Of a DNA stretch of 64,000 bases, positions 3,332-37,536 are shown in pieces. Both the position numbers and the translations under genes were made by a program. Source of the DNA: a virus (taxonomy: Duplodnaviria; Caudoviricetes); IMG/VR virus record IMGVR_UViG_3300027763_000057, positions 3,525 to 67,524 of that record, one strand, 5' to 3'. Each line of letters starts with the position of its first letter. Position 1 is the first letter of the stretch. The notes below the pieces were generated by a model, which was given only the letters and a program-made list of their open reading frames with translations, was not told where the DNA came from and made no database searches.

Positions 3332-3529
3332 ATGAAAAATTCAAATGTAAAAGACGAGATTCTACTCTATCTTGAACAGGAAGAACGACCACTAGCTTGG
3401 CTTTCAAGGAAAACAGAAATACCATATCCAACACTTTATTCAATTTTTATTCAAAGGATAATGAATCTTTCTGATAAAAATTTGGCTACAATTAACAAAG
3501 TGCTAGATACCGATTTTATTAACGATTAA
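3332..3529 (+). CDS. Cro/XRE-family HTH regulator
   Basis: LAWLSRKTEIPYPTLYS HTH pattern; heads the replication operon. Confidence 0.75.
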   Translation: MKNSNVKDEILLYLEQEERPLAWLSRKTEIPYPTLYSIFIQRIMNLSDKNLATINKVLDTDFIND

Positions 3530-4237: not shown

Positions 4238-6097
4238 ATGATTACCATTTTTAAGAACATCTTTTCCAAAGAACCAAATTACATTTCTATTGAAGCTGCA
4301 TTGAAAAGAATACAGCAGGGAAAAAGTAAGGCAATAGTAGAGGAGATTAGAAAAACAATTGATAAGGAGAAAGCAAATAAAATAAAATTAAACCTTCCGT
4401 CTATTTGCTTTAGTGGAAAATTTGGAGCAGATAGAACCGATGTTCAATTAATTCAGCATAGTGGTTTTGTTGTGCTTGATTTTGATAATATTTTTGAATT
4501 ACGAGATAAGCAAACTGAAATAATATCAAATCCATTTGTTTACGCTTGTTGGATTAGCCCTTCTGGAAATGGATTGAAGGCATTGGTAAAAATAGCTAAT
4601 GGTTCAAAACATAGGGAACACTTTCAAGCCTTACAAGAAGTTTTTCCTGAAATTGACCGAAGTGGGATTAATGTAAGTCGGGTTTGTTATGAAAGTTATG
4701 ACACCGAAATTTACATAAACGAAAATGCTGAAGTATTTAAAAAAATTAAGAAAACAGAGAAGGTTGTTGTTTACGAAAAGAATGATGATGATGAAAAGAT
4801 ATTTAAAAATATCGTTACTTGGCTTTCAAATAAAAACGAAGCATTTGTAACAGGGGAAAGGAATAATTTTATTTTTAAATTAGCATCCGCTTGTTGCCGA
4901 TTTGGTATTAATGAAATGACCGCTAATTCAATGATTCATAGCGAGTTTTTGACTAATTCTGAATTTACAAAAAATGAAGCTAATAGGGCAATTCGTTCAG
5001 CATACAAAGCAAATTCGGGTAATTTTGGTAGCGCATCTTTTGATAAAGAAATATTGGTAGATAAGGTTTCAAGAAGGGAAGTTGAAGTTGAAAAAGCTGT
5101 ATTTGATGAAGGAATAAAATTGAAAGATGTAATATATGGAATTGATGTAAAAGAGCAAGCGTTACGAATTTATGATGAAGGGTATGCTAAAGTAGAAGGC
5201 GTTGGAATACCTGAATTAGATGAAAGATTTAAGCCAAAAAGAGGTGAGGTAACCGTTCTTACGGGTATTGGTAACTATGGTAAATCTTCGTTTAAAAAAT
5301 GGTATCAAGCCATGAGGATAATGTTGTACGGAGAGAAGTTTGCTACATTCTCGCCTGAAGATAATCCGCCCGAAGAATATTACCACGACTTTGTTGAGAT
5401 AATATTAGGATGTGATTGTAGCCCCGCCAATCCACACAGACCAAGTAAGCAAGTGTACGAGTATGTGTATGACTTGGTTTGTCATCATGTGTTTTATGTT
5501 TACCCAAAGGATGTATCACCTACGCCTCAATACATAATGGAAGTATTTTTAGAATTAATCGTTAAGGAGAATGTTGATGGTGTTGATATTGACCCGTTTA
5601 ACCAATTGACAAACGAATATCAAAAGTTTCAAAGAAGTGATAAGTATTTGGAGTGGGTATTGTCAGTGTTTTCAAGATTTTCTCAAATAAACAATATTTT
5701 CTTTTGGATAATTGCGCATCCAACAAAAATGCAAAAAGCGGCAGATGGTAACTATCCTTGTCCTGATGTATTTGATTTAACCGATGGAGCTATGTGGAAT
5801 AATAAAATGGATAATATCCTTGTGTACCATAGACCATTTGCGCAAACAGACCCGCAAAACCCATCTTGTGAATTTCATAGTAAAAAAATAAGAAGGCAAA
5901 AGATTGTTGGTAAAAAAGGTTTTATTTTGTTCCAAATGTTTTTCCAAACTAGAAGATTTTTATTTAATGGATTGGATTCATTGCAGAAAATTATTAACGA
6001 TAAAAATATAATTTTAAGACCAGATGTGGCAGTGCAAAAGGCGTTTGATAATTGGGTTCCTTATAAAGATGACAACGGAGAAGAAGTAAATTTTTAA
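4238..6097 (+). CDS. primase-helicase (VirE-N/BT4734-like + PriCT + SF4 Twinkle-like helicase)
   Basis: LDFD, SPSGNGLK, GERNN, Walker A TGIGNYGKS, IDPFNQL, IIAHPTK. Confidence 0.85.
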   Translation: MITIFKNIFSKEPNYISIEAALKRIQQGKSKAIVEEIRKTIDKEKANKIKLNLPSICFSGKFGADRTDVQLIQHSGFVVLDFDNIFELRDKQTEIISNPFVYACWISPSGNGLKALVKIANGSKHREHFQALQEVFPEIDRSGINVSRVCYESYDTEIYINENAEVFKKIKKTEKVVVYEKNDDDEKIFKNIVTWLSNKNEAFVTGERNNFIFKLASACCRFGINEMTANSMIHSEFLTNSEFTKNEANRAIRSAYKANSGNFGSASFDKEILVDKVSRREVEVEKAVFDEGIKLKDVIYGIDVKEQALRIYDEGYAKVEGVGIPELDERFKPKRGEVTVLTGIGNYGKSSFKKWYQAMRIMLYGEKFATFSPEDNPPEEYYHDFVEIILGCDCSPANPHRPSKQVYEYVYDLVCHHVFYVYPKDVSPTPQYIMEVFLELIVKENVDGVDIDPFNQLTNEYQKFQRSDKYLEWVLSVFSRFSQINNIFFWIIAHPTKMQKAADGNYPCPDVFDLTDGAMWNNKMDNILVYHRPFAQTDPQNPSCEFHSKKIRRQKIVGKKGFILFQMFFQTRRFLFNGLDSLQKIINDKNIILRPDVAVQKAFDNWVPYKDDNGEEVNF

Positions 6098-15932: not shown

Positions 15933-18900
15933 ATGCCAGAAGAACAAAATAATCCGTTTGCAGAATTTGGTGGCGAGGTAGTAAAAAAAGAAACAAATCC
16001 GTTTGCAGAATTTGGTGGAGAATTAAAAAAAAAAGACAAAGCTACACGTTCAGGATATTCGGTTACACCATTACCATCTCAAGATAAATTTGATATAGGA
16101 GAAGAAGTGGCTACTATTGGATATAAAAGTCCAATAGGTAAAGCTATTCAGAAAGACAAAATTAAAGGTAGCAATGTAGCCGGAGTGTATAATACATTAG
16201 TCGGAAGTTTATCGTCAATTATGGGAGGCGGCGCTTATATGGCTGATATACTTGGCGCTCAACCTTATATGCCATTAAGCGTTAGAATCGCTAATGCTGA
16301 CGCAGATAGAAAAAAAGCTGTTAGTTTTATAGAACAGGCTAGAATAGAAAAAGGTTTTCCATTAATAACTCCAACAGGAGTAGATTGGATTGGCTCAAGC
16401 AAGCAATTTGAACAGCAACAAAGTGAGTTTGATGTTACTCCAAAAGAAGGTGGAGGATTGTTTAGTGGAGTAGATTTTGAAGATGTTAGAGGGTTAGCTT
16501 TTCAAGCGCCTAAAACACTAGTAGAAATGGCTGCGGGTGGATTATCTGGTGGTTTGACATTTGCCCAACAATCAATTAATGATAATGCAAAAGAATTAGA
16601 AGAAAGTGGAGCTGGTGATAAATTAACTGATGTTCAAAAAGTAGGATATTTATTTACTCAAGCGGCAGCTCAAGCAGCTCTTGAAAAATTTTCTATAGAT
16701 AAAATATTAAAAAATACAGGTTTAGCTAAAAGTATAGAAAAGAAAATTACTGCAGAGGTTATTGAGGAATTTGCTCAAAAAGGCATAAAAGCTACTGCAA
16801 AAGAGGTTCAAGATGAGATGGTTAAAAAAGCAGCTAAACTATCTACTAAATTAAAAAATGTAGGAGTAAAAGGATTGCAAAGTGCTTTTGTAGAAGGAAG
16901 CACAGAGGGGATTCAGCAAGCGGCTTCTGATGCTATAAAAGTAACAACTAATAAAATAGCAAAAAATGAAGTTTTCGATGAAGAGGATATAAATAAAAAT
17001 TTTTGGAAGAATGTTGTAAATAATACTGTTATGGGCGCTGCAATGGGAGGAGTCGCAGGCGCCGGGCTGCAAGGCTTAAGTAGTACAGATAAGGCAATTA
17101 GACAAGAAATTGCAAATGAAACTGATTTACAAAATATACAAGAGCAAATAAGCAAGCAGGTAGAAGAAGGTAATTTAACTCCGGAAGATGCAGAAGCGGC
17201 AAATATCACAGCGCAACAATACGCAGAAATTGCAGGGAAGATTCCTACAACAGTGTCAAAAGAAGATAAGTATAAAATTATAGGTGGTATTTCGCAAAGA
17301 AATAGCTTGCAGCAAGATTTGCAAAAAGCTCGTGAAGAGATGATGGATGTTGACCCTATATTTAGAAAAGAAAAGCAAGACCAAGTTGATTTAATACAAG
17401 CTAAAATAGATGAAACAGGTGATTATTTAGAAGGTCTTGCAACAGGAAAGAAGCCAAGATACATTAAAAGAGATGGTAGAAAAGGAGAAGAAACTACCTA
17501 TTATAAAGTTGATGAAAATGGAGATAGCACTCCAATAAGTCAAGCTCGTTATGATTTAGCTAAAGCAATTAAAAAAGAAGATAGTAGAAAGAAAGCTCCT
17601 GTTGATGAAAACAGACGCAGAAGAGTAGAGCAATTTGATATATTATATGGTGTTAAATCAAACAATCCAGAATTTGATTTTCCTAATTCATTTGAAGAGT
17701 TTAATAAGAAAATAGATAGCGACCCTAACTATTTATCTGATTTATACAAAAGAGCAAAAAAGTACAAAGAAACAGGAGAAATTGCTGAAGACGAAATGGG
17801 TACAGAAGCGTCTTTCATAGATGCTATAAATCCGCCTGTAGAAAAGGATATTACAATAGGCGAGATTGTAGATAAAAAAGGTACATACAAAAACGAAAAA
17901 GGAACTTTCTTACAAGAGGGTGGTAATATCGTATTTAAAAATGAAGCTTCAGGAGAAAAATATGAAGTAGGTAAGGCGGCTGAAATACAAGAGAAGCCAG
18001 CGTCAGAATTTGATATTAAATATGACGAGTCTTTAGTTGCAATTGACGATAAAGGCAATATAAGTGTAAGAGAAAAGCCTTACATAAACAGATATTCAAA
18101 TCCATTAAAGGCTATTAATAAAGATGAAAATGGAAATATAGTTTCCGTTAATTTGGAAACAGCTGATGGTAAAAAGAGAACATTTAAGGGAAGTATAGCT
18201 GAAGATATAGCTTATCAAATAAACTTAAAAGAAAAAAGCAAAGAAGCACCTAAAGTTGAACCTAAAACCGAACCGGTTGTTGAAAAGCCTGTTCAGGTAA
18301 TTAAGCCGGTTAAACCAGTTGTTGAAGTAAAAGAAAAAATTGAAGAAGAAGTCAAACCGGTTGAGGTAAAGGAAAAACCTAAAACTAAAGTTGAGGAAAT
18401 TAAAACTAAAATAAAATCTAAATTAGAAAGTTTTAAAGAAAGGTTTGCTCCTGTAAAAAAAACATCTACGCAAGGTGAAAAAATTGCTGAAGCTAAAGAT
18501 GTTTATAAGAAAGTAAAAGAAATGGATGCTCCTTCTGACGGAGCGGAGATTGGGTTAAGGTATTTAGCGGATGGTGGTATAGTTAGTCAGGCTACTGTTG
18601 ATGAAATTGCAGGTACTACTGCTAATGTTAGAGCTACATTAAATACCGGAAGAAAAGTTAAAACAAAATCAGAGGAAAGCAAGTCTAGAGATTATGTTAG
18701 CGGTAACGAGTCGTTAGATGATTTAGTGCATAGATTATGGGAGGTAAATAAACAAAGGATTGATATAGATGATATTAAGGAGGCTTTGATGGATGAAATT
18801 GGAAATAATAATACAAGATTTGATGCAGCTAAAGCTTATTTAGAAAGATATAGTCCAGAATATACTCAAAAGTCATATGAGGACAGAATGAGCGAGCAGA

Positions 18901-21900
18901 TGCAAGCTGAAGAAGAAGAGTTTAGAAGAAAATTAGAAGAAGAAGGATTGGAAGAAGCTCCATTTGCTGTTAGAGAAGCAACCACAGAAGATGTAGAAGC
19001 AATGCAAGAAATTGTGGCTGATTATGTAAAAGATGGAGTTACGGCATTGGATGATATTAAAAGAGAGGTAGCAAAAGAATTAGGATACAACACAAAAGCA
19101 TTAAGACAAATTGTTGAGGATGCTTATAATAGATATACTACAACAACAGAGGTTGCCCCTTCAGAGGTTTTAGGCGCTATTGCAGATAGAGTTGGCAATA
19201 AGATGAAGCAGATGTTTGGCAAAGCAGCTCAAGCGCCGGTTATACTTGATGATGCTAATTCTATGCTTGATAAGGCAGCTGAATTGGGGGCAGATGGCGC
19301 AGTTATAGAATTCCAAAAAGAACAAGCAAAACAACAAAAAGGCGCATCCGTATCAGATAAAACTGCTATGAATGATTTAAGGTCAAAGACAGAAGATAAA
19401 GCTAAAATTAGCATTATTGATGCAGCTGAAAAAATGATAACAACCTTAAAGTCGGTGTTGCCTAATTTTGATATTGTAATACATGGTAGCGATGAAAGTT
19501 ATAACGCAGCCATGAAAGATGCTGAAATTGACGGTGTAGTTGGGGGCGTTGGTAATTTTAGTTATTCTAAAAAGAAAGGTGAATATTCAGGTCGTATTGA
19601 TATTAACTTGAACAAAGCAAATAATAAGACATTAGCGCACGAGGTAGCTCATGGAGTTATGTTGAAGGCATTTGGCGATAACCCAAAATTATTTAAAGAA
19701 TTTAGGGAGAAGATAGCATCTGTACTAAATGAAAGTGATAATCAAACATTAATCGATTTTGCTGATAGGGCTACTTATGCAAAAAATGATACTTACGAAG
19801 AATATTTAGCGGAATTAACAGCTATGTTAGCTGAACAAGAAACTAAATTATCTACAAGTACATTCCAAAAAATTGCTGCTATTATAAATGATATAATAGA
19901 AAAGATAACAAATGGTGCATTTAAGCCATTTGAAGGTATTAAGAGAACAAAACAAATTGTTGACTTTTTTAATGATATATCAGAGTCTATTCGTAAAGGA
20001 GAGGCAATAAAGATTGAAAATATTAAAACCGCAGAGGAATTAAAAAAGCAGGCTAAACTAGAATTAGAGGATTTTGAAAGAATTGCCACAGAAAGCATTG
20101 CGGATATTGCTAGGATGTTTGGTATGGATTTGGGTAATCCAGTAGCTTCAAAAGCTCAAGTTCCTGTTGAAAAGCTTCCTAGACCAGTTATTAATGGATT
20201 TGATGTTTTAAAGAAAAAGCTTGGCGAAACTGCAGCTAAAAAAGTAAGAGAGAAAATCCCATTTGCATTAGATTACCCTACTGAATTTATTGATTTTGTA
20301 ACAGTAAAAATACCGGCAAAAGAAGATATTCCATTTATCGTAGATAAGATGGCGGATAGGTTAGATGGTTTATTTAGAATAGCAGTTGATAAGAATATTG
20401 AAACCGCAGATGCGAAAGGAAAGACTCCAGAAGAATTATCAAAGGAGGCGGGGTATGTATTTCATAGAACCGAAAAGCCAGATGATGTATTGGTATTTAA
20501 AAAAGATTTTGCAAATGGTGAAGTGTTATGTACATATAATGATGTAGAGGGTAGAATGTATAATAATTTAGTTTTTTGGTTAAGAAGAAGTGAGGCAGAA
20601 ACAGTATTGCATGCAAATGATTTAACACAAGAGTATTTAAAAGAGGAATCGGAAGGTGCTGTTTTATGGCGTAATTATTTAGATGGGAAAGGACAAAAAA
20701 ACAATGATGGGTCATATAATTTATCAGATGTAAGACCATCAAGACAAGACCCTTATGGAACATCTTCAATGAGTGTTCAAATAGGAAAAAGAGGCGGCGA
20801 TATTTCAATAAAAAATAGATATAATCATAGTGTAAATAACCCAGATGCTACATTTGGTAATGACTTAAATTCTATAGTAGACGGTCTTCATGACGCTGTA
20901 TATAATATAGAAGGAGTACCAAAGAAAAGGCAAGAAGCGCGCCTTCCTGACAATATAGTAGCAGATGACAAGGGTAGATTATTTAAATATGATAGAGAGA
21001 TTAATGATATTTATATAAGTAAAAATGGATATATAGATAACGGGGTTCTTAATCTAATAGATAAATCTACACAAAAAATAATTGATAATTATTTAATTGA
21101 TTCAAAAAATAAATCAGCTAAATCTTTAACAAACAGCAGTAACCAACTTATACCTGATATTAATAAAATTTCTTTTGACAAGAATACCATTAAAATTCAA
21201 TCAGATAAGGGTTCTTTAAATCTTGAACTTGTTGACGGATTGCTTGATAAGTTAAGTGGTGATATTACAAGAATAGAAGGTAGATTTTTAAATTTTAACG
21301 AATCCCTGACTAGTATTGATTTGCCATCAGTTAAATACATTGGTCAAGATTTCCTTTACATTAATAAATCTTTAAAAAGCATTAATTTGCCATTAGTCGA
21401 AACAATTGGTGATGAATTTCTTTATTATAATCAATCTTTAAAAGATATTGATTTACCATCAGCTAGTGCTATTGGTGACCAATTCCTTCGTAAAAATGAA
21501 ATTTTAGAAAATATTAATTTACCTTCAGCGGTAATTATAGGTTCAAATTTTTTAAGCGATAATATATCTATAAAAGATATTGATTTGCCATTAGTTCAAA
21601 TGGTGGGGTATAATTTTATTTTTGATAATGATATTTTAGAAAGTGTTAATTTGCCAAATATTAGGTCTATAAGTGATAGCTTTCTTGCTAGAAACAAAAG
21701 TTTAAAAAATATTGATTTACCATTAGTTAATAGCATAGGAAATTCTTTTTTACTTTATAATCAAGCTATAGAAGAAGTAAATCTTCCGTTAATAAAACAA
21801 ATTGGTTCAAGTTTTTTAAATTTTCATCAAAATTTAAAAAAAATAGATTTTCCTTTATTGAAATCTGTTGAAAGTGAATTTCTTTTTAGTAACATTAAAT

Positions 21901-24900
21901 TAGAAAGTGTTAATTTGCCTTTATTAGAAAGAATAGGTTCCGAATTTCTTAAAAATAATGAATCATTAACAACAATAAGTTTACCTTCTGTTAAAAATAT
22001 TGGTCCTAGATTTATGCAAAATAGTCTTTTGACTAGCATAGATTTGCCATTAGTTGAAACCGTTGACTTTAATTTTCTTGGAGATAATCGTAGGTTAGAA
22101 AGTATTAATTTGCCAAATGCTGTATACGTTGGGGATAAATTTTTAGGTAATAATCAATATATAGCAAGTGTTGAATTGCCTTTAGTAAAAGACATAAGTA
22201 GTTCTTTTTTATATAATGCTCAAGATTTAGTAAGCATAAAATTGCCATCAGTTGAAACAATTAGTAGTAAATTTCTTTTTGAAAATAAATCAATAACTAG
22301 TATTGATTTGCCTTTGGTTAGATATATTGGAGATAGATTTTTATATAACAATCAGTCTTTGTCAAAAATTAATTTACCATTGGTTGAAACAATTGAAACT
22401 GGTTTTCTTTATGATAATCAATCTTTAACAAGCTTGGATTTACCATCGGTTAAAAAAATAGGTTATGATTTTATTTATGAAAATAAATCTTTAGCAAAAA
22501 TAAATCTTCCGTTAGTAGAAAAAGTTGGAAGTGCATTTCTTAAAAATAATGAATCATTAACTAAAATTGATTTACCATTAATTAAATATATTGGGAATCA
22601 ATTTTTATTTTTTAATGAATCTTTAAAAGACATTAATTTGCCACTTGTTACTGATATAAGTAATGATTTTCTTTATGGCAATCAATCTTTAGAAACTCTA
22701 AAATTACCGGAACTTGTAACTGTTGGAAGTGATTTTCTTCTTTATAACAATGCTTTAACAACTTTAGAATTACCAAAAATAAACTACATAGGTAGTGATT
22801 TTCTTTTTAATAATACAACTTTAGAGAATTTTGAGTTGCCATCCGATATGAGATATTTTAGTCCTGATGGTTTCTTTTCTAAAAACAAAGCTTTAGCAAA
22901 TAAAATAGCAACAGCAAGCATGGAATCCGGCGTTAGGTCAAAAGCACAAATGCCAATGTTTATGGCTAATCAAAATGGCGAAGATATATTAGGCTTTTCT
23001 TATGACAATAGAATGTATTTAAATGGAGAGAAACTTAATCCTAACACCATAATACACGAAGCAGGTCATATTTGGACAGAGTGGATAAAGGGCAATGATA
23101 CTAAATTGTATGATAAGGGTATGGAATTGGTTGAAAAGTCACCATACTTGCAAAAAGCAAAGAATAGTAAATTTTACCAAGAACAAGCAGATAAATTAGC
23201 TACAGAAGAGCAAAGAGAGGCTTACTTTAAACACGAAGCATTAGCTATGGCTATTGGTGATAAAGGCGCTCAATTTGTATTAGAAAGCAAAAAAGAATCA
23301 TTCCAAGATTGGCTAAAGACTTTGTGGACTAAAATAAAGAACTTAACAGGATTTAAAGATTTAACAGCAGAAGAGTTCCAAAACTTAACTTTTGACCAAT
23401 TTTCTAAAATGGCTGTTAAGGAAATATTAGGAACAGAAGGCGCAGTTGAAAAGTTAAATTCAATAAAGAGTTTTAGGAATAAAAAGAAATTTATAAAAGA
23501 CAACCTAAAATACGAATCAAATAAAAATGCAATAGACGAACTTGATTTTACAGAAGAAGATTTCATTGAAATAGCAAAGTCAAATTTTGATTTATCAACC
23601 TTTAAAAATATAAAAGATGCCGTACAAAAGCGAAGCACAAAGAAAGTATTTCAACCAAAACAAGGAGAAGTTGGAGAAGCAGGGGGTGGACGTAGACGAG
23701 TGGAACCAAGAATCGAAGGGGAAGGAATTACCGGAGAAGAAGGCGAAGCCGCACAGCCCCAAGGTACTACGCAAATCCCAGAAGAAATTCAAAATATAGG
23801 GTTAGAAAATCAAGACGTAGATTATGTCCGCATAACAAAAGCGGAATTAAGCAAATTAAGAGAAAGTCTTGGACTACCTGCATACAAAGGATTGCCTATT
23901 GAGAATCGTGAGATGTTGAGAGAAGCAGCTCAAGAAATGATTAAAAAAGGTGTAAGTGTTGAATCTTTGTATGATAAGATAAAATTAGGAAATGTCTTAT
24001 CCAACTACGAAAATGCATTTATGTCCGAATACAGGGCTGCATTGGATGTGGAGTTGAAGAACAATCCTTCTCAAGAGTTATTAGCCAAGATTACTGAATT
24101 TGCTGATGTATTTCAAAAAAGTGCATCTCAAACCGGTAAAGCATTGGAAAGTTTGAAAATAATGAAGAAACTCAACGAGGCTAACACATTATCTAACTTT
24201 TTATTGACTAGGCAAGAAGATAAAGGGTTTCCGCTGACTCCTAAAATGATGGTAGAAGAAACTGCTAAATTTGAAAAAGTACAAAAAGCTAAAAAAGAAT
24301 TAAAAGAATCTGTTGAAAATGATATTATAAACCAAGTTAAAACAGAAGCTGAAAATGAATTAAAGAAAGAGGGCAAAGCAAAAGTTAAAAAATCTCACGA
24401 AGAATTTGTAAAAGAAAGAAAAGCAGCATTAGTAGCCGCAAAAGAAGCTTTGAAAAAATTAAGAAGTGGAGAGCAAGGATTAATGGTTTCTGCGCCGGGA
24501 TTAAATGAGTTAGTTGCAATAGCGCCGCATATAAATAAATATGTTAAAAGTTTATTTGCAGAAGGTGTTTCTAAATTAGATGATATTGTTACTGAAGTTC
24601 ATAAAGAATTTTCAGAATTAGTTGACGGCTTGACAAAAAGAGATGTATTAGATGTAATTGCCGGTAAACATAATCTTAAAAAAATAACGCCTAATGAAAT
24701 AAATGCAGGGTTAAGATTGTTGCGCAGAGAAGCCGATTTGTTAGGTTTATTAGAAAAGGCTAGACTAGGAGAAGATAGAGCTAAATCTGAAAGTCAAATG
24801 GCTGAAAAGAGTAAAAGAGTGCAGGAGTTGGAAAAAAAGATAAAAGAAGTTAAAGAATTAAATAGAGTTAAAGAATTAGCAGAACAAGGTGTTGAAGAAA

Positions 24901-26585
24901 AATCACCGACCATTGGTAAAGACGGAGTAACCGATGCTGATTATAATCAAAAAAGACAAAAATATTTAGATAGAAAAATTAAAAAATTAGAAGACAATTT
25001 AAAAAATAAAAATTACGATAAAGAAGAAAAGGAAACTATAAAATATAAGGTTTCCGATAAAACCAAAAAAATGACAGATAGGGTGGTGGAGCTTGAAAAA
25101 GCGATTGCTCTAGATAGATATAAAGACCAGACTAATAAATTAAGCAAATGGGAGAAAGCTTGGGATAAAATTCAAAGCGTATTAGGAGTAAGAAGGATTG
25201 TTCAAACTGCTATAGATGCTTCTATTTGGTTTAGACAATTGGCAAAATTAACATTGAACCCTCTAAAATGGAGTATTGCAAGGAAATTTATATTTGCGGG
25301 GGCGCAATCTGTATTTAGTCAGAAAAATTACGATAGATTAATGTACGGAATACATCAGGCACCTGATTTTGAAGAATCAGTAAAAGATGGTATTAGATAC
25401 AATGAGCTAGATAGCATTGACCCTAAAAAGCAAAACGAAATGTTCCCTAAAAGTTTTGTATTTAAAATACCTATTTTAAGGGAATTAATAACCGCATCAC
25501 AAAGAATAGCGGATGCGTCTTTAAATGTCGCTCGATATGAATTGTATAATAAATACAAAAGGGAATTATTAAGAAAAGGAATAACTAGAGAAAGCGACCC
25601 TAATGAATACGAGCAGATGGCTAAACTTGTTATGAATAGTACGGGTAGTGGAAATATGCTTGAAATTTTAGAATCAAGAAAGGCAGAAAAAGTTATGGGT
25701 TCTTTATTTTATGGAGCTAGATTGATGGCTGCAAATATGAATACTCTGAATCCGATTTACTATGTTAGGATGCCTAAAGAAGTTAGAAAAATGGCAATGA
25801 AGGATTTAGCATCATATACAACTACCGTAATAGCTACAACATTAGCTTTTGCAGCAGCGGGTGGTGCTGTATCAATGGACCCAGATGACCCTGAATTCTT
25901 GCAAGTTAGATTTAATGGTAAAGTTTATGACTTTACAGCAGGGCAAGCTGCTTATATTAGAACATTTTTAAGATGGGTTGAATTTGGTTATGCTAGAGCC
26001 GTTAAAAGTAAATTTGAAGCCGGTGAAGCAGGAGCTTTTGCTTGGAGGTCAACTTTAAGCTTTTTTAGAAATAAATTAGCTCCAAATACCGCTTATTTAA
26101 TAAATGCGTTTGTTGGTAAAAATTCTATTGGTCAAGATTTTGAACCAATGGAAATAGTTCATGTATATCCAATGTATGCTGACGATGCTTATGAAGCTGC
26201 AAAAGAAGATGGCTTTGTATCATTATTAACCGTGCTGATGCCAAATATTTTAGGAATAGGGTATTCTAGTTATTATTCAGACAAGGCAATGAAGCCTATT
26301 GATGAGGTAGTAAATAGAGCGCAAAATAGTGATGAATTAGACCCCGAATCAGTTAAAAAGGGAATAACTAAAAAAGAATTCGAAGAATTTGCTAAATTGC
26401 GTGATAAATTAATTGCAGAAAAAATAAAAGAATTGTATGAAGAAGGTGTATATGATACGGAAATAGGCGAATATGTGCCAATTAAAAAATCAACACCGGA
26501 AAGTATTACAGCGGCTATTATGAAGGCAAAATCAGCCGCAACAAAAGAAGCTAAATCTGAATTTAACGCCGATGATGAAGAATAA
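15933..26585 (+). CDS. giant polyvalent virion/ejection protein with two zincin (HExxH) domains and a BspA-like LRR block
   Basis: LAHEVAH (~19640), IIHEAGH (~23055), ~24 22-aa repeats, coiled coils. Confidence 0.75.
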   Translation: MPEEQNNPFAEFGGEVVKKETNPFAEFGGELKKKDKATRSGYSVTPLPSQDKFDIGEEVATIGYKSPIGKAIQKDKIKGSNVAGVYNTLVGSLSSIMGGGAYMADILGAQPYMPLSVRIANADADRKKAVSFIEQARIEKGFPLITPTGVDWIGSSKQFEQQQSEFDVTPKEGGGLFSGVDFEDVRGLAFQAPKTLVEMAAGGLSGGLTFAQQSINDNAKELEESGAGDKLTDVQKVGYLFTQAAAQAALEKFSIDKILKNTGLAKSIEKKITAEVIEEFAQKGIKATAKEVQDEMVKKAAKLSTKLKNVGVKGLQSAFVEGSTEGIQQAASDAIKVTTNKIAKNEVFDEEDINKNFWKNVVNNTVMGAAMGGVAGAGLQGLSSTDKAIRQEIANETDLQNIQEQISKQVEEGNLTPEDAEAANITAQQYAEIAGKIPTTVSKEDKYKIIGGISQRNSLQQDLQKAREEMMDVDPIFRKEKQDQVDLIQAKIDETGDYLEGLATGKKPRYIKRDGRKGEETTYYKVDENGDSTPISQARYDLAKAIKKEDSRKKAPVDENRRRRVEQFDILYGVKSNNPEFDFPNSFEEFNKKIDSDPNYLSDLYKRAKKYKETGEIAEDEMGTEASFIDAINPPVEKDITIGEIVDKKGTYKNEKGTFLQEGGNIVFKNEASGEKYEVGKAAEIQEKPASEFDIKYDESLVAIDDKGNISVREKPYINRYSNPLKAINKDENGNIVSVNLETADGKKRTFKGSIAEDIAYQINLKEKSKEAPKVEPKTEPVVEKPVQVIKPVKPVVEVKEKIEEEVKPVEVKEKPKTKVEEIKTKIKSKLESFKERFAPVKKTSTQGEKIAEAKDVYKKVKEMDAPSDGAEIGLRYLADGGIVSQATVDEIAGTTANVRATLNTGRKVKTKSEESKSRDYVSGNESLDDLVHRLWEVNKQRIDIDDIKEALMDEIGNNNTRFDAAKAYLERYSPEYTQKSYEDRMSEQMQAEEEEFRRKLEEEGLEEAPFAVREATTEDVEAMQEIVADYVKDGVTALDDIKREVAKELGYNTKALRQIVEDAYNRYTTTTEVAPSEVLGAIADRVGNKMKQMFGKAAQAPVILDDANSMLDKAAELGADGAVIEFQKEQAKQQKGASVSDKTAMNDLRSKTEDKAKISIIDAAEKMITTLKSVLPNFDIVIHGSDESYNAAMKDAEIDGVVGGVGNFSYSKKKGEYSGRIDINLNKANNKTLAHEVAHGVMLKAFGDNPKLFKEFREKIASVLNESDNQTLIDFADRATYAKNDTYEEYLAELTAMLAEQETKLSTSTFQKIAAIINDIIEKITNGAFKPFEGIKRTKQIVDFFNDISESIRKGEAIKIENIKTAEELKKQAKLELEDFERIATESIADIARMFGMDLGNPVASKAQVPVEKLPRPVINGFDVLKKKLGETAAKKVREKIPFALDYPTEFIDFVTVKIPAKEDIPFIVDKMADRLDGLFRIAVDKNIETADAKGKTPEELSKEAGYVFHRTEKPDDVLVFKKDFANGEVLCTYNDVEGRMYNNLVFWLRRSEAETVLHANDLTQEYLKEESEGAVLWRNYLDGKGQKNNDGSYNLSDVRPSRQDPYGTSSMSVQIGKRGGDISIKNRYNHSVNNPDATFGNDLNSIVDGLHDAVYNIEGVPKKRQEARLPDNIVADDKGRLFKYDREINDIYISKNGYIDNGVLNLIDKSTQKIIDNYLIDSKNKSAKSLTNSSNQLIPDINKISFDKNTIKIQSDKGSLNLELVDGLLDKLSGDITRIEGRFLNFNESLTSIDLPSVKYIGQDFLYINKSLKSINLPLVETIGDEFLYYNQSLKDIDLPSASAIGDQFLRKNEILENINLPSAVIIGSNFLSDNISIKDIDLPLVQMVGYNFIFDNDILESVNLPNIRSISDSFLARNKSLKNIDLPLVNSIGNSFLLYNQAIEEVNLPLIKQIGSSFLNFHQNLKKIDFPLLKSVESEFLFSNIKLESVNLPLLERIGSEFLKNNESLTTISLPSVKNIGPRFMQNSLLTSIDLPLVETVDFNFLGDNRRLESINLPNAVYVGDKFLGNNQYIASVELPLVKDISSSFLYNAQDLVSIKLPSVETISSKFLFENKSITSIDLPLVRYIGDRFLYNNQSLSKINLPLVETIETGFLYDNQSLTSLDLPSVKKIGYDFIYENKSLAKINLPLVEKVGSAFLKNNESLTKIDLPLIKYIGNQFLFFNESLKDINLPLVTDISNDFLYGNQSLETLKLPELVTVGSDFLLYNNALTTLELPKINYIGSDFLFNNTTLENFELPSDMRYFSPDGFFSKNKALANKIATASMESGVRSKAQMPMFMANQNGEDILGFSYDNRMYLNGEKLNPNTIIHEAGHIWTEWIKGNDTKLYDKGMELVEKSPYLQKAKNSKFYQEQADKLATEEQREAYFKHEALAMAIGDKGAQFVLESKKESFQDWLKTLWTKIKNLTGFKDLTAEEFQNLTFDQFSKMAVKEILGTEGAVEKLNSIKSFRNKKKFIKDNLKYESNKNAIDELDFTEEDFIEIAKSNFDLSTFKNIKDAVQKRSTKKVFQPKQGEVGEAGGGRRRVEPRIEGEGITGEEGEAAQPQGTTQIPEEIQNIGLENQDVDYVRITKAELSKLRESLGLPAYKGLPIENREMLREAAQEMIKKGVSVESLYDKIKLGNVLSNYENAFMSEYRAALDVELKNNPSQELLAKITEFADVFQKSASQTGKALESLKIMKKLNEANTLSNFLLTRQEDKGFPLTPKMMVEETAKFEKVQKAKKELKESVENDIINQVKTEAENELKKEGKAKVKKSHEEFVKERKAALVAAKEALKKLRSGEQGLMVSAPGLNELVAIAPHINKYVKSLFAEGVSKLDDIVTEVHKEFSELVDGLTKRDVLDVIAGKHNLKKITPNEINAGLRLLRREADLLGLLEKARLGEDRAKSESQMAEKSKRVQELEKKIKEVKELNRVKELAEQGVEEKSPTIGKDGVTDADYNQKRQKYLDRKIKKLEDNLKNKNYDKEEKETIKYKVSDKTKKMTDRVVELEKAIALDRYKDQTNKLSKWEKAWDKIQSVLGVRRIVQTAIDASIWFRQLAKLTLNPLKWSIARKFIFAGAQSVFSQKNYDRLMYGIHQAPDFEESVKDGIRYNELDSIDPKKQNEMFPKSFVFKIPILRELITASQRIADASLNVARYELYNKYKRELLRKGITRESDPNEYEQMAKLVMNSTGSGNMLEILESRKAEKVMGSLFYGARLMAANMNTLNPIYYVRMPKEVRKMAMKDLASYTTTVIATTLAFAAAGGAVSMDPDDPEFLQVRFNGKVYDFTAGQAAYIRTFLRWVEFGYARAVKSKFEAGEAGAFAWRSTLSFFRNKLAPNTAYLINAFVGKNSIGQDFEPMEIVHVYPMYADDAYEAAKEDGFVSLLTVLMPNILGIGYSSYYSDKAMKPIDEVVNRAQNSDELDPESVKKGITKKEFEEFAKLRDKLIAEKIKELYEEGVYDTEIGEYVPIKKSTPESITAAIMKAKSAATKEAKSEFNADDEE
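21250..22890 (+). repeat. ~24 tandem 66-bp/22-aa leucine-rich repeats (BspA/LRR_5-like)
   Basis: Consensus FLYNNxSLxxIxLPLVxxIGxx. Confidence 0.9.
23617..23799 (+). CDS. nested +1-frame small basic protein
   Basis: MPYKSEAQRKYF...EW...KGKELPEK resembles a small phage protein family (recalled, not searched); A-rich leader. Confidence 0.6.
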   Translation: MPYKSEAQRKYFNQNKEKLEKQGVDVDEWNQESKGKELPEKKAKPHSPKVLRKSQKKFKI

Positions 26586-34667: not shown

Positions 34668-37040
34668 ATGCAACAAGCTACAAATACATACCCTAATCAA
34701 CAGATTGACCCAAGGGAAAAGGGATATGATTGGATACTTCAATATTGCAAAGCGGCATGGGGTGATTCCCGTGGTTATGTGCCAAATAATATGTTGAATT
34801 TTGGTCAATCTAAAATGAATGAAATTAAAGAGTATGCATTAGGAAGACAAAGTACTTCAAAGTATAAAAAACTTTTAAATGTAGATGAGCAAACAGATAA
34901 AACATGGCTTAATACAGATTGGACTCCGCCATCATTTTTAACAAAGTATAGAGAGATAGCTATTTCAAAACTTGTTCAAAGGCGTTATGATTTGCAAGCG
35001 TTTGCAGTTGACCCTTTAGCTAAAAGTGAAGAAGATGAACGCTTTAATGAAATGAAAGTTAAGGTGATGATGCGTGAAGCTGCAATGAAGGCGGGTAATG
35101 AAGAATTAGCTAATAGCCCTGTGTTAAAACCAATGGAAGGTGAGCCTGAAGATATGGAGCAGTTGTTGATGGAACAACAATTTGGTTACAAACATGTTAT
35201 GGCAATGGAAGCAGAATGTGCTATTGCTTTGACAATGTATAAAAATAAATTTGACGAAAAAAGAAAAAGAACTCTTGAAAATTTATTTGATTTTGGTATT
35301 GGTGGATATACTGAATATATAGATGAGAATGGTGCTGTAAATGTAAGAGATATTAATCCCGAAAATTTAGTATTATCGTATTGCGCAAAAAATGACTTTT
35401 CCGATTTGGTACATTTTGGAGAAGTTAGAGAAGTATATGTAGGGGACCTAGCACCTTATTTTTCCCCCGACCAATTAAATTTGATAGTTCAATCTGTAGC
35501 CGGACGTTTTGGTAACCCATCTAATTTTATGTATGGCACAGACTATTCAAAGTATTGGAATCGTTTTAAGGTGCTTATTTTAGATTTTGAATTCCTATCA
35601 TGGAATGATTACACTTATAAAGAAGAAGTAGATAACAGAGGCAATGCTCGTTTTGGTAAAACAAAGTATCAGGATTCAAGCAAAATGGACTTGGCGGTTA
35701 ATGAGAAGGGAACAATTGAAAAATTTGACTACGCAGGGTCTGTGCCTAGTTTAGTTGACTCAAAGAGTAAAGGGCAAGCCGAGCCTGTATATATGCCTGT
35801 TACTAAAAAGGTTGTTTATAAGTGCAAATGGTTAATTCAAACTGATTATATGTATGATTGGGGTATGTCTGAAAATCAAATTAGACAACCTTCGTCTTGG
35901 TGGGATACAAAATTAAACATCCAATTATACTCATGGAATTTCTATAAGATGCGTTTTGCAGGTATTACAGAAAGATTGATTCCTTTAGAAGATAAAGCAT
36001 GTTTAGCTTGGTTTAGGCTTCAAAATATGTCTAACAAATTAATTCCGTATTTAATAAATATAGATTTAAACGCATTAGAAGGTGTTGATTTTGGAGGAGG
36101 TGGAGATAAGATGAACCCAACAAAGGTTATGGATTTTATATTTTCTAATTTTGTTGTTCCTTATCGTTCAACAGATTTATTAAGTCAAAATCCAAACTAT
36201 AAGCCGGTAAGCATTGAAGCTTCAGGACAATTAGCTGTATTTAGCCAATTGTATCAAGAGTTGCAAAATACTATTGATATGATGCGTCAAATATCAGGAT
36301 TAAATGAATTGACAGATGGCTCTACTCCAAATGCAAAAACGTTAGTTCCAGTTGCAAATGCTGCAATGGAAAGTACTAATAATGCTTTATACTTGTTAAG
36401 CTTTGCTGACAAGCAATTGGTGCAAAATGTTGCAGATGCTATTGTTGCAAAAGTACAGATAGCTGTTAAATTAGGTAAGGTAGAAGGTTATGGTAGAGCG
36501 TTAGGTACGGAAACTGTTAAATTTTTCCAAATTAATCCTGACTTGTCTATTCATGAATTTGGTATATTTATTGAAGATAGCCCATCTGATTACGAAAGAC
36601 AGCAATTAATACAAGAGTTAAATATTAGAGATTCTCAAGGATTAATTGAGCCTGAAGATAAAATACTTGTAATGAGTTGCCGTAATTTAAAAATGGCATC
36701 AATGATACTTGCATATAAGATTAAGAAGCGTAGAGAGAAGATGCAAGAATACGAATTACAGAAAGTAAGAGAAGCTTCTCAAGGTAATGCAATGGCAGTT
36801 CAAACAGCTGAACAAGAAAAGCGTATCACATTGCAAGACCAATTAAATGCAGATATAGCTAAAATTAACGCTGAAAAACAATGGGAATATATTATTCAAA
36901 TGGGTAAGAAGGATAAAGATATTCAAGAAGCTGAAATACAAAAAGAAGCAAAAGTTATTGCTCAAAGAATAGCAGCAGATGCTAGAATAGCGGTAAGCGA
37001 CAAGAAGCAAGTACAAACAATGACATCCAAAACAAAATAA
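34668..37040 (+). CDS. portal protein
   Basis: 790 aa, ISGLNELTDG motif, C-terminal coiled coil; lies between terL and scaffold/MCP; TAATTTTG upstream at 34639. Confidence 0.85.
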   Translation: MQQATNTYPNQQIDPREKGYDWILQYCKAAWGDSRGYVPNNMLNFGQSKMNEIKEYALGRQSTSKYKKLLNVDEQTDKTWLNTDWTPPSFLTKYREIAISKLVQRRYDLQAFAVDPLAKSEEDERFNEMKVKVMMREAAMKAGNEELANSPVLKPMEGEPEDMEQLLMEQQFGYKHVMAMEAECAIALTMYKNKFDEKRKRTLENLFDFGIGGYTEYIDENGAVNVRDINPENLVLSYCAKNDFSDLVHFGEVREVYVGDLAPYFSPDQLNLIVQSVAGRFGNPSNFMYGTDYSKYWNRFKVLILDFEFLSWNDYTYKEEVDNRGNARFGKTKYQDSSKMDLAVNEKGTIEKFDYAGSVPSLVDSKSKGQAEPVYMPVTKKVVYKCKWLIQTDYMYDWGMSENQIRQPSSWWDTKLNIQLYSWNFYKMRFAGITERLIPLEDKACLAWFRLQNMSNKLIPYLINIDLNALEGVDFGGGGDKMNPTKVMDFIFSNFVVPYRSTDLLSQNPNYKPVSIEASGQLAVFSQLYQELQNTIDMMRQISGLNELTDGSTPNAKTLVPVANAAMESTNNALYLLSFADKQLVQNVADAIVAKVQIAVKLGKVEGYGRALGTETVKFFQINPDLSIHEFGIFIEDSPSDYERQQLIQELNIRDSQGLIEPEDKILVMSCRNLKMASMILAYKIKKRREKMQEYELQKVREASQGNAMAVQTAEQEKRITLQDQLNADIAKINAEKQWEYIIQMGKKDKDIQEAEIQKEAKVIAQRIAADARIAVSDKKQVQTMTSKTK

Positions 37041-37041
37041 A

Positions 37042-37536
37042 ATGGTAAAATCTTTATTATCGAAAAGTATGAAAAGCGTCTTGCAAGAGGCGTTATATTT
37101 AGAATTATATCAATCTAATCTTTGGAAGGCTTTGGCTAACCAAATGCAACGATATGGTTTTTTTGGTACACAAAAGTATTTCTTGGCAGAAAGCGAAGAA
37201 GAATTAACACATTACCAAATTCATGTTGAGTTTCAAAATGATATGGGTGATTGCGCTGATATGCCTTCAATAGAAGCTATTAAAGATAAAGTAAAAACTA
37301 TTGGAGAATCTTTGGAAATAGGTTATGAAATGGAGCTTGAGGTTTACAATAAATATAAAGAATTTTACAAAATGGCAGAAGATGAGGATTGCGTTGTAGG
37401 ACAATTCTTACTTCAATTTTTAGAAATACAAAGAAAGGCGGTAGGTCATTATGGTGATTTACTTGCAAAATATGCAACAGCTGAAGCAACTAAAGAAATA
37501 TTAGAATTTGACCAACATATCAACGATGTTCCTTAA
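37042..37536 (+). CDS. ferritin-like protein
   Basis: Four-helix bundle with ferroxidase-type residues: ELY, EEELTH, ELEV, FLEIQ. Confidence 0.85.
   Translation: MVKSLLSKSMKSVLQEALYLELYQSNLWKALANQMQRYGFFGTQKYFLAESEEELTHYQIHVEFQNDMGDCADMPSIEAIKDKVKTIGESLEIGYEMELEVYNKYKEFYKMAEDEDCVVGQFLLQFLEIQRKAVGHYGDLLAKYATAEATKEILEFDQHINDVP

Follow-up and report, generated by a model that had tools for sequence, protein, structure and literature searches.

The nested reading frame and its host gene

This study concerns a short reading frame in a 64,000-nucleotide stretch of DNA (the window) from a virus of the Caudoviricetes (Duplodnaviria), positions 3,525 to 67,524 of the IMG/VR record IMGVR_UViG_3300027763_000057. 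The window is part of a 67.5-kb uncultivated virus record of freshwater origin. The frame (23617..23799, + strand) encodes 60 amino acids plus a TAG stop and lies entirely within a 3550-aa open reading frame (ORF; 15933-26585) on the same strand, in frame +1 relative to this host. Based on the ORF listing with its translation, the homologues and the selection acting on the small frame, we consider it likely, at roughly 80%, that 23617-23799 is a functional protein-coding gene, wholly embedded in a linker of the giant virion-region gene. The overlap DNA very probably codes for two proteins, with both readings kept intact in related lake phages.

The nested ATG (23617-23619) is offset by one base from the host codon GAT (23616-23618), and the frame ends with TAG at 23797-23799. 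These coordinates and the encoded peptide match exactly those of the initial annotation, which was made from the sequence alone and had proposed an overprinted gene at this site. A TAA stop in the small frame (23611..23613, + strand), two codons (6 nt) 5' of the ATG, forms the 5' bound. Since this stop closes the small frame, the nested ATG is its sole possible start. The presumed initiation region (23587..23616, + strand) is A-rich with an A at -3, has no Shine-Dalgarno (SD) sequence, and no other ATG occurs within 30 nt on either side. The window's genome contains one copy of the family described below.

In the host frame, the same DNA encodes a linker rich in Gly, Glu and Arg (23616..23801, + strand; host residues 2562-2623). 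This is the low-complexity segment that the initial annotation had quoted: G, E, R, P and Q make up 0.60 of its residues, versus 0.25 in the remainder of the giant protein. The GC content over the overlap is 0.46, versus 0.32 for the giant gene. The host gene (15933..26585, + strand) belongs to the virion gene block, and its 3550-aa product carries BspA-type leucine-rich repeats (LRRs) and two HExxH motifs. LRR_5 is its only Pfam match. Of a polyvalent-type string of effector and metallopeptidase (MPTase) domains, Pfam thus shows LRR_5 alone; the metallopeptidase domains are read from the two HExxH motifs visible in the translation. The giant C-terminal domain (23901..26582, + strand; 894 aa) is a separate gene in some relatives. 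According to the annotation of the neighbours, genes for a 1184-aa structural protein and a 518-aa protein lie upstream of the host gene. Directly 3' of it follow a 103-aa gene and then the large terminase, with the portal further downstream. Two SKAQ motifs (20148-20159 and 22938-22949) bracket the LRR cassette of the giant protein and resemble the KSEAQ/KSKAQ found at the start of the small protein (23626-23640).

ORFs of 40 to 60 codons occur elsewhere in alternative frames of the giant gene, so that such a length is unremarkable by itself and would be expected of a chance ORF. However, searches of billions of proteins find homologues of the nested peptide with E-values from 1e-13 to 1e-28. 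Because of this homology the ORF is beyond chance, and the probability of a chance origin is close to negligible.

A widespread family of small phage proteins

A search of 5.8 billion proteins yielded 156 homologues of 33-105 aa, with E-values down to 1e-28; for the 120 matches listed, E lies between 1e-28 and about 1e-11. In an exhaustive HMMER scan of 1.84 billion representatives, 400 cluster representatives matched at E<=1e-3 and 132 at E<=1e-10, and the family HMM recovers the window copy at E 1e-31. The family motif reads MPYKS..Q...F...GV.V.EW...LP. Twelve positions are invariant in an alignment of 25 members (M1, P2, S5, Q8, F12, G23, V24, V26, E28, W29, L38 and P39), and the window protein carries all twelve. 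The conserved core of ~41 residues is followed by a variable Lys/Arg-rich tail, with seven Lys or Arg among the last 18 residues of the window protein. An AF2 model of the window peptide (pLDDT 79.6) places helices at residues 6-14, 16-21 and 26-33 and leaves the tail disordered. The core is thus predicted to fold into three short helices, with the basic tail behind it.

In other phages, members of the family are encoded by small genes of their own or make up the very N-terminus of long mosaic proteins. The module begins at residue 1 in about 120 of the 150 matches listed, in proteins whose lengths range over 55-1022 aa. The initial annotation had noted a likeness to a widespread stand-alone small phage protein, and this likeness is real: homologues abound in a large family of small proteins and N-terminal modules that share the same motif. 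The long module-bearing proteins are low-complexity mosaics, for example with NUDIX or DUF6321 domains. Those that start with the module (P0124-P0268; L021 6001-7356) consist of short recurring modules linked by Gly-rich hydrophobic segments. Their modules include a Cys-containing RCW.GYE.VPGK element, DUF6321, NUDIX and a HELTHA..D metalloprotease-like motif, and the proteins as a whole resemble cargo polyproteins.

The family could not be matched to a named one. A PHROGs search with the peptide gave a single weak match (E 0.12, function unknown), and the ESM Atlas returned unnamed viral clusters only. A weak ESM Atlas row (score 0.84, family on 15% of members) suggested DUF3008 (PF11450), but neither the window protein nor the 25 members matched it at E<=10, and this lead was dropped. 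A blastn search of phages with the 2.5 kb around the site gave no match. In 50,697 phage records, the window peptide gave five weak tblastn matches, and a typical free member of the family gave none. One of the five, in an Acinetobacter phage, was discarded as it is located within an unrelated 406-aa protein. The best of the weak matches is an unannotated 35-aa ORF in Phage C75C1 (OQ984151.1; L001 1498-1605). It opens with a related MPFKS..Q motif and may be a distant relative in a deposited genome. The ORF fills a gap between two annotated small genes, among very basic small proteins and 5' of a 'head closure' gene. Judging from the matches as a whole, the nested product belongs to an old and widespread family of phage proteins, to which neither Pfam nor PHROGs gives a name.

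Nesting across related phages

Scanning IMG/VR gave 598 matching stretches; 345 of them were confirmed, and the best 80 of these 345 loci were analysed. Four of the 80 (L042, L056, L063 and L064) were excluded from the core, tree and SD-motif counts, as the regular expression did not match them. The 76 pattern-recognised loci and the window's own locus (L003) gave 54 unique cores after duplicates were collapsed. Sixteen of the 54 are nested, and in all 16 the small frame is +1 to the host. Fourteen cores lie fully within a long same-strand ORF, and those of L039 and L055 are nested 41-49 codons past the start of the host gene. The non-nested cores are free small genes or in-frame N-terminal modules. 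The position of the nested gene varies from host residue 41 to 2561. The hosts are mosaic and mostly unrelated beyond the overlap, which is often all that they have in common.

Seen from the small gene, the host frame is -1 in every nested locus, and in many relatives the module forms the N-terminus of proteins of 300-1022 aa. Both observations would fit a product that starts at the nested ATG and slips by -1 into the host frame, fusing the module to the C-terminal ~930 residues. We regard such a frameshift product as very improbable. There is no conserved X XXY YYZ heptamer: ten of the 16 nested loci, including the window, have none in frame, and its position varies in the rest. Moreover, the nested ORFs end in basic tails just as free copies do, and the tail motif is kept in the small frame even in L026, where the host protein is different.

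The linker is present in 27 giant proteins of 2525-3684 aa, which various pipelines called as single genes. The initial annotation had expected gene callers to miss the nested gene. This holds in part, as some pipelines did call close nested relatives (P0004, P0005) separately.

The nested state was also traced through the giant's C-terminal 894 aa, ignoring the small ORF. This retrieved 13 loci with 64-94% identity, and all 13 have an intact nested ORF of 59-62 aa. With a profile of the C-terminal domain, 25 loci were recovered together with +/-10 kb on either side, and matches to the small gene are single in each locus: 19 copies are nested, three are free and adjacent, one is shortened, and two loci have none. 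Interruption of the +1 frame in related phages, which would have spoken against a gene, is therefore not what is seen, with the frame intact in 13/13 orthologues and in 19/25 more distant loci.

The three free-adjacent copies (L148, L151 and L156) start 4-11 nt past the stop of the C-terminal-domain gene. L147 is syntenic with these loci, but its copy is nested in the upstream giant gene and it has no free copy. On the evidence of such syntenic genomes, the free and nested states substitute for each other. The L147 host and its L148 orthologue have their N- and C-terminal thirds in common (64% identity), while the central module, which in L147 contains the nested gene, is unrelated to that of L148. 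This indicates that engulfment came through module exchange or fusion. In L158, a shortened 25-aa copy with its core deleted (13038 onward) stands where syntenic relatives hold a 54-aa free gene, and no further copy is found within +/-10 kb. The gene may thus be dispensable in some phages, or L158 may have a copy elsewhere. L160 and L161 have no copy within +/-10 kb or up to the contig end.

In GC-richer phages the free copies sit in tightly packed operons. The free gene of L059 and L079 begins 4 nt past a 1888-aa gene. Ten neighbours of free copies are annotated as portal (four), large terminase (one) or as unannotated or of unknown function (five). In a poorly resolved 42-column tree the nested state needs 7 changes, versus 13.2 with shuffled labels, and an approximately unbiased (AU) test did not reject a single clade for the nested state (p 0.15).

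The portal (window 34668-37040) is 80-98% identical among the relatives, in an alignment that leaves out L122. For the giant's C-terminal part, identity is 64-94% within the close set and about 25% outside it. This means that the giant gene evolves and recombines much faster than the head genes. A homologue of a ferritin-like protein adjoins the nested-copy host genes in L039 (5425-5871), L044 (7520-7966) and L055 (5392-5838). The ferritin-like gene of the window (37042-37536) comes after the portal instead, and the gene order of the block is permuted among relatives.

Selection and composition in the two frames

Across 17 nested sequences and 41 codons, the mean pairwise differences at small-frame codon positions 1, 2 and 3 are 9.5, 5.4 and 14.0, and the numbers of invariant sites are 17, 24 and 7. 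The most conserved position, the second of the small frame, is the third position of the host frame. An OLGenie-style count gave a small-frame pNN/pSN of 0.26 (bootstrap 0.17-0.38) and a host-frame pNN/pNS of 1.2 (0.79-2.2). The picture is similar within orthologues: for the nine sequences of the orthologous nested clade alone, which share the nested state by descent, the ratio is 0.21 (0.12-0.35) in the small frame and 1.2 in the host frame. Judged from these substitution patterns, the small frame is under purifying selection and the host-frame residues evolve neutrally.

Comparison of the window with L014 illustrates the same asymmetry. Over the 41-codon core the small frame is 73% identical and the host frame 49%, and the giant's C-terminal part is about 33% identical. 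Within the clade that inherits the nested state, the nested ORF keeps its ATG and a length of 57-62 aa. The dual-coding gene proposed initially is thus supported by intact orthologues as well as by purifying selection on the small frame.

The host frame, for its part, stays open. No nested core is interrupted by a host-frame stop, whereas 40 non-nested cores have a mean of 3.2 stops in the equivalent frame and only 5/40 are without a stop. The GC content of the core minus that of its flanks is +0.16 in nested copies, compared to 0.00 in free copies. We attribute the raised GC of the nested copies to the need to avoid host-frame stops in an AT-rich genome. The earlier suggestion that the small gene shapes the linker is borne out by the periodicity of substitutions in the small frame, by the neutral host residues and by a GC content that is raised only in nested copies.

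Conservation of the overlap could also stem from the host protein or the nucleic acid, for instance from an RNA structure or from a linker at which modules recombine, with the +1 ORF as a by-product. The overlap is the only segment common to otherwise unrelated mosaic hosts, much like a recombination joint, and a TTAAAA-like element lies 13-18 nt upstream in most nested loci. Still, variation is highest at small-frame third positions and lowest at second positions, which are host third positions. This pattern is the opposite of that expected from host-frame constraint, and unlike a constraint at the nucleotide level. The host-frame ratio of 1.2 and the fact that free genes encode the same protein with alternative frames full of stops also speak against this explanation, which we hold to be very improbable, if slightly less so than a frameshift product.

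Start signals and RNA coverage

The leader of the nested gene has an A at -3 and an A fraction of 0.60 over -20..-1, so that the A-rich leader described in the initial annotation is present. The 37 gene starts of this phage have leaders with an A fraction of 0.54 +/- 0.11 and without Shine-Dalgarno sequence; of the 220 ATGs within the giant gene, only 4.5% have a fraction as high as 0.60. The predicted folding energy over -30..+30 is -2.8 kcal/mol at the nested start and -3.05 +/- 1.82 at real starts, as compared with -7.55 +/- 3.18 kcal/mol at 216 internal ATGs, 4.6% of which are equally open.

Among the nested leaders, 14/16 have an A at -3, and GGAGG-like motifs precede free copies in GC-richer phages. 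In L035, a GAGGAGG (5977-5990) lies 9 nt 5' of the nested start. It was rejected as an SD sequence; it encodes Ser-Glu-Glu-Gly in the host frame and is probably a coincidence, because other genes at this locus show no SD use. The TTAAAA-like element (window 23599-23605), found 13-18 nt 5' of the small ATG in most nested loci although the hosts are otherwise unrelated, is translated as Leu/Phe-Lys by the host frame. The upstream TAA of the small frame is part of this element in several loci. The element could belong to the initiation region or reflect a constraint on the host protein.

Bacteroidetes lack SD sequences, and their initiation is tuned by mRNA structure and an A at -3 (Baez et al. 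2019, PMC6847099). From its SD-less leaders, the host of the phage is probably a Bacteroidota bacterium.

The open, A-rich start region also bears on the possibility that the nested ORF is a silent relic, a once-free small gene that was swallowed by fusion or recombination and is untranslated, looking gene-like only through recent capture. The free copies of syntenic relatives attest to capture, L158 to the possibility of decay, and translation of the nested ORF is deduced from indirect signals. Nevertheless, a relic seems improbable. While identity of the host falls to about 33%, the small frame keeps its ATG, its 57-62 aa and a ratio of 0.21, and 13/13 orthologues are intact. The start region has remained open and A-rich, and L147 carries the nested copy alone, the free one having been lost.

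Weighing the evidence for a nested gene

A functional embedded gene remains our preferred explanation, and several points weigh against it, among them the indirect evidence for translation just mentioned. The start signals are typical but not unique, as about 4.5% of internal ATGs (around ten) are as A-rich or as unstructured, and the A-richness of the leader may be due in part to the Lys/Asn-rich host protein. The nested ORF is covered by contigs of three metatranscriptome libraries, which derive from relatives that differ at about 6-8% of positions; such contigs show presence only, carry no 5' ends, strand or level, and may stem from DNA carry-over. The selection ratios are rough, being uncorrected pairwise proportions over related sequences, with the SN class near saturation (0.63) and too few SS sites for use. 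Several loci share a contig with others or are almost identical, so that the independent lineages number perhaps nine, not dozens. The small gene is not indispensable everywhere, with L158 shortened and L160 and L161 lacking a copy. On the side of function, Pfam has no family for the window peptide or for the 25 scanned members, a Foldseek search with the AF2 model gave no match in BFVD or PDB at E<=0.001, and tblastn found no close homologue in the cultured phages among the 50,697 phage records. Any functional assignment is drawn from gene neighbourhood alone.

A model for dual coding and a possible function

We propose that, in this phage lineage, the reading frame of the giant gene runs across the small gene out of phase with it. 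Amino-acid constraint would fall on the small frame, and the host frame would merely stay open. Keeping the host frame open would in turn explain why the small gene uses GC-rich codons although the genome is AT-rich, and why the linker is rich in Gly, Glu and Arg. Ribosomes presumably start internally at the nested ATG, in an A-rich and unstructured region with an A at -3 and no Shine-Dalgarno sequence. Such initiation would correspond to the mode described for Bacteroidetes.

As to function, the product is perhaps a small virion- or assembly-associated protein that works with the portal or with the giant ejection-type protein. We put this forward tentatively, as a suggestion more likely to fail than to hold, because the gene is always found inside or beside portal or giant genes and this linkage is its sole basis. 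For a possible pairing of the nested and giant products, too, only genomic linkage was found: free copies abut the giant-region gene. A complex prediction for portal and small protein scored 0.00, which weighs neither for nor against binding.

A broader and still more doubtful idea is that gene engulfment builds giant phage proteins, with an ancient free small gene becoming the junction between the modules of a mosaic giant. The giant's linker would then be the small gene read one base out of frame. If this were true, the conserved DNA of the small gene would be a portable joint for module exchange between phages. The small protein would be a dedicated assembly, packaging or ejection partner of the giant, and a shared mRNA would yield it in fixed proportion. 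What would permit the arrangement is that the hosts' ribosomes need no Shine-Dalgarno sequence and initiate wherever a stretch is open and A-rich. Such SD-less initiation, if true, would explain why 16/16 nested copies are found in AT-rich phages with SD-less leaders, and free ones with SD-like motifs in GC-richer phages.

The system has wider implications. Many natural replicates, with the same gene either free or nested, amount to a natural experiment on two frames sharing DNA. The usual direction of overprinting can apparently be reversed, such that the embedded gene is old and constrained and the host linker new and free. The family is an abundant, uncharacterised group of small proteins of uncultivated phages, whose nested copies standard annotation may drop, and its tie to portal and giant ejection-type proteins is a testable link. 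For annotation, a note of caution follows: where a giant phage protein has a GC-rich linker of low complexity that looks out of place, a gene hidden in another frame can be the cause.

Comparison with known systems

Embedded same-strand genes such as lambda Rz1 in Rz, and overprinted viral genes, are already known. New are the family itself, its embedding in giant virion-region genes of many uncultivated phages, the polarity of the overlap, and the alternation between free and nested states in syntenic genomes. To our knowledge, and as an impression, nested genes of double-stranded DNA phages that are supported by multiple genomes are few. Supplements aside, we found no description in the literature of the family or of a gene nested in a giant phage virion protein.

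The free family members lie beside the portal or large terminase gene, as T7 gp6.7, T7 gp7.3 and lambda gpW lie beside the portal gene. This likeness is positional only. The three proteins have 68-99 aa, compared to about 45-65 aa for the family described here, and T7 gp6.7 is annotated as being injected from the virion into the host cell. As relatives they were rejected, with hhalign probabilities of 0.04% for T7 gp6.7 (DUF5476), 0.27% for T7 gp7.3 and 0.05% for lambda gpW.

The host protein itself recalls the polyvalent proteins (Iyer et al. 2017, PMC5512222), being a giant multi-module protein with mosaic modules, encoded in a virion block with a portal-terminase system. Unlike in polyvalent proteins, Pfam sees LRR_5 only in the giant host, and its metallopeptidases are read from HExxH alone. 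The main text of PMC5512222 describes no embedded gene: 'overlapping' and 'frameshift' do not occur in it, and its two uses of 'nested' refer to a hairpin fold.

The closest architectural parallel is found among phage lysis genes. Lambda Rz1 lies in the +1 frame of Rz. As in our case, a small gene is placed wholly inside a larger same-strand gene in another frame, both frames are kept across phages, and relatives show alternative architectures. For spanin genes of phages, embedded, overlapped and separate architectures have been described (Kongari et al. 2018, PMC6139136). Unlike Rz, the partner here is a 3550-aa virion-region protein and not a lysis protein. The embedded gene is older and widely distributed, with the host-frame reading derived and unconstrained. 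Its expression is deduced from sequence, and the two products are connected by genomic linkage only.

In overprinted genes of viruses, the derived frame is biased in composition and prone to disorder, and selection on the two frames is asymmetric (Pavesi 2021, PMC8227390; Sabath et al. 2012, PMC3494269). The nested gene shares these traits, in that one stretch of DNA would give two proteins, with a biased derived frame and asymmetric selection. In classical overprinting, however, a new ORF is born in an old gene, whereas the evidence presented here points to an old small gene that was engulfed by a larger frame.

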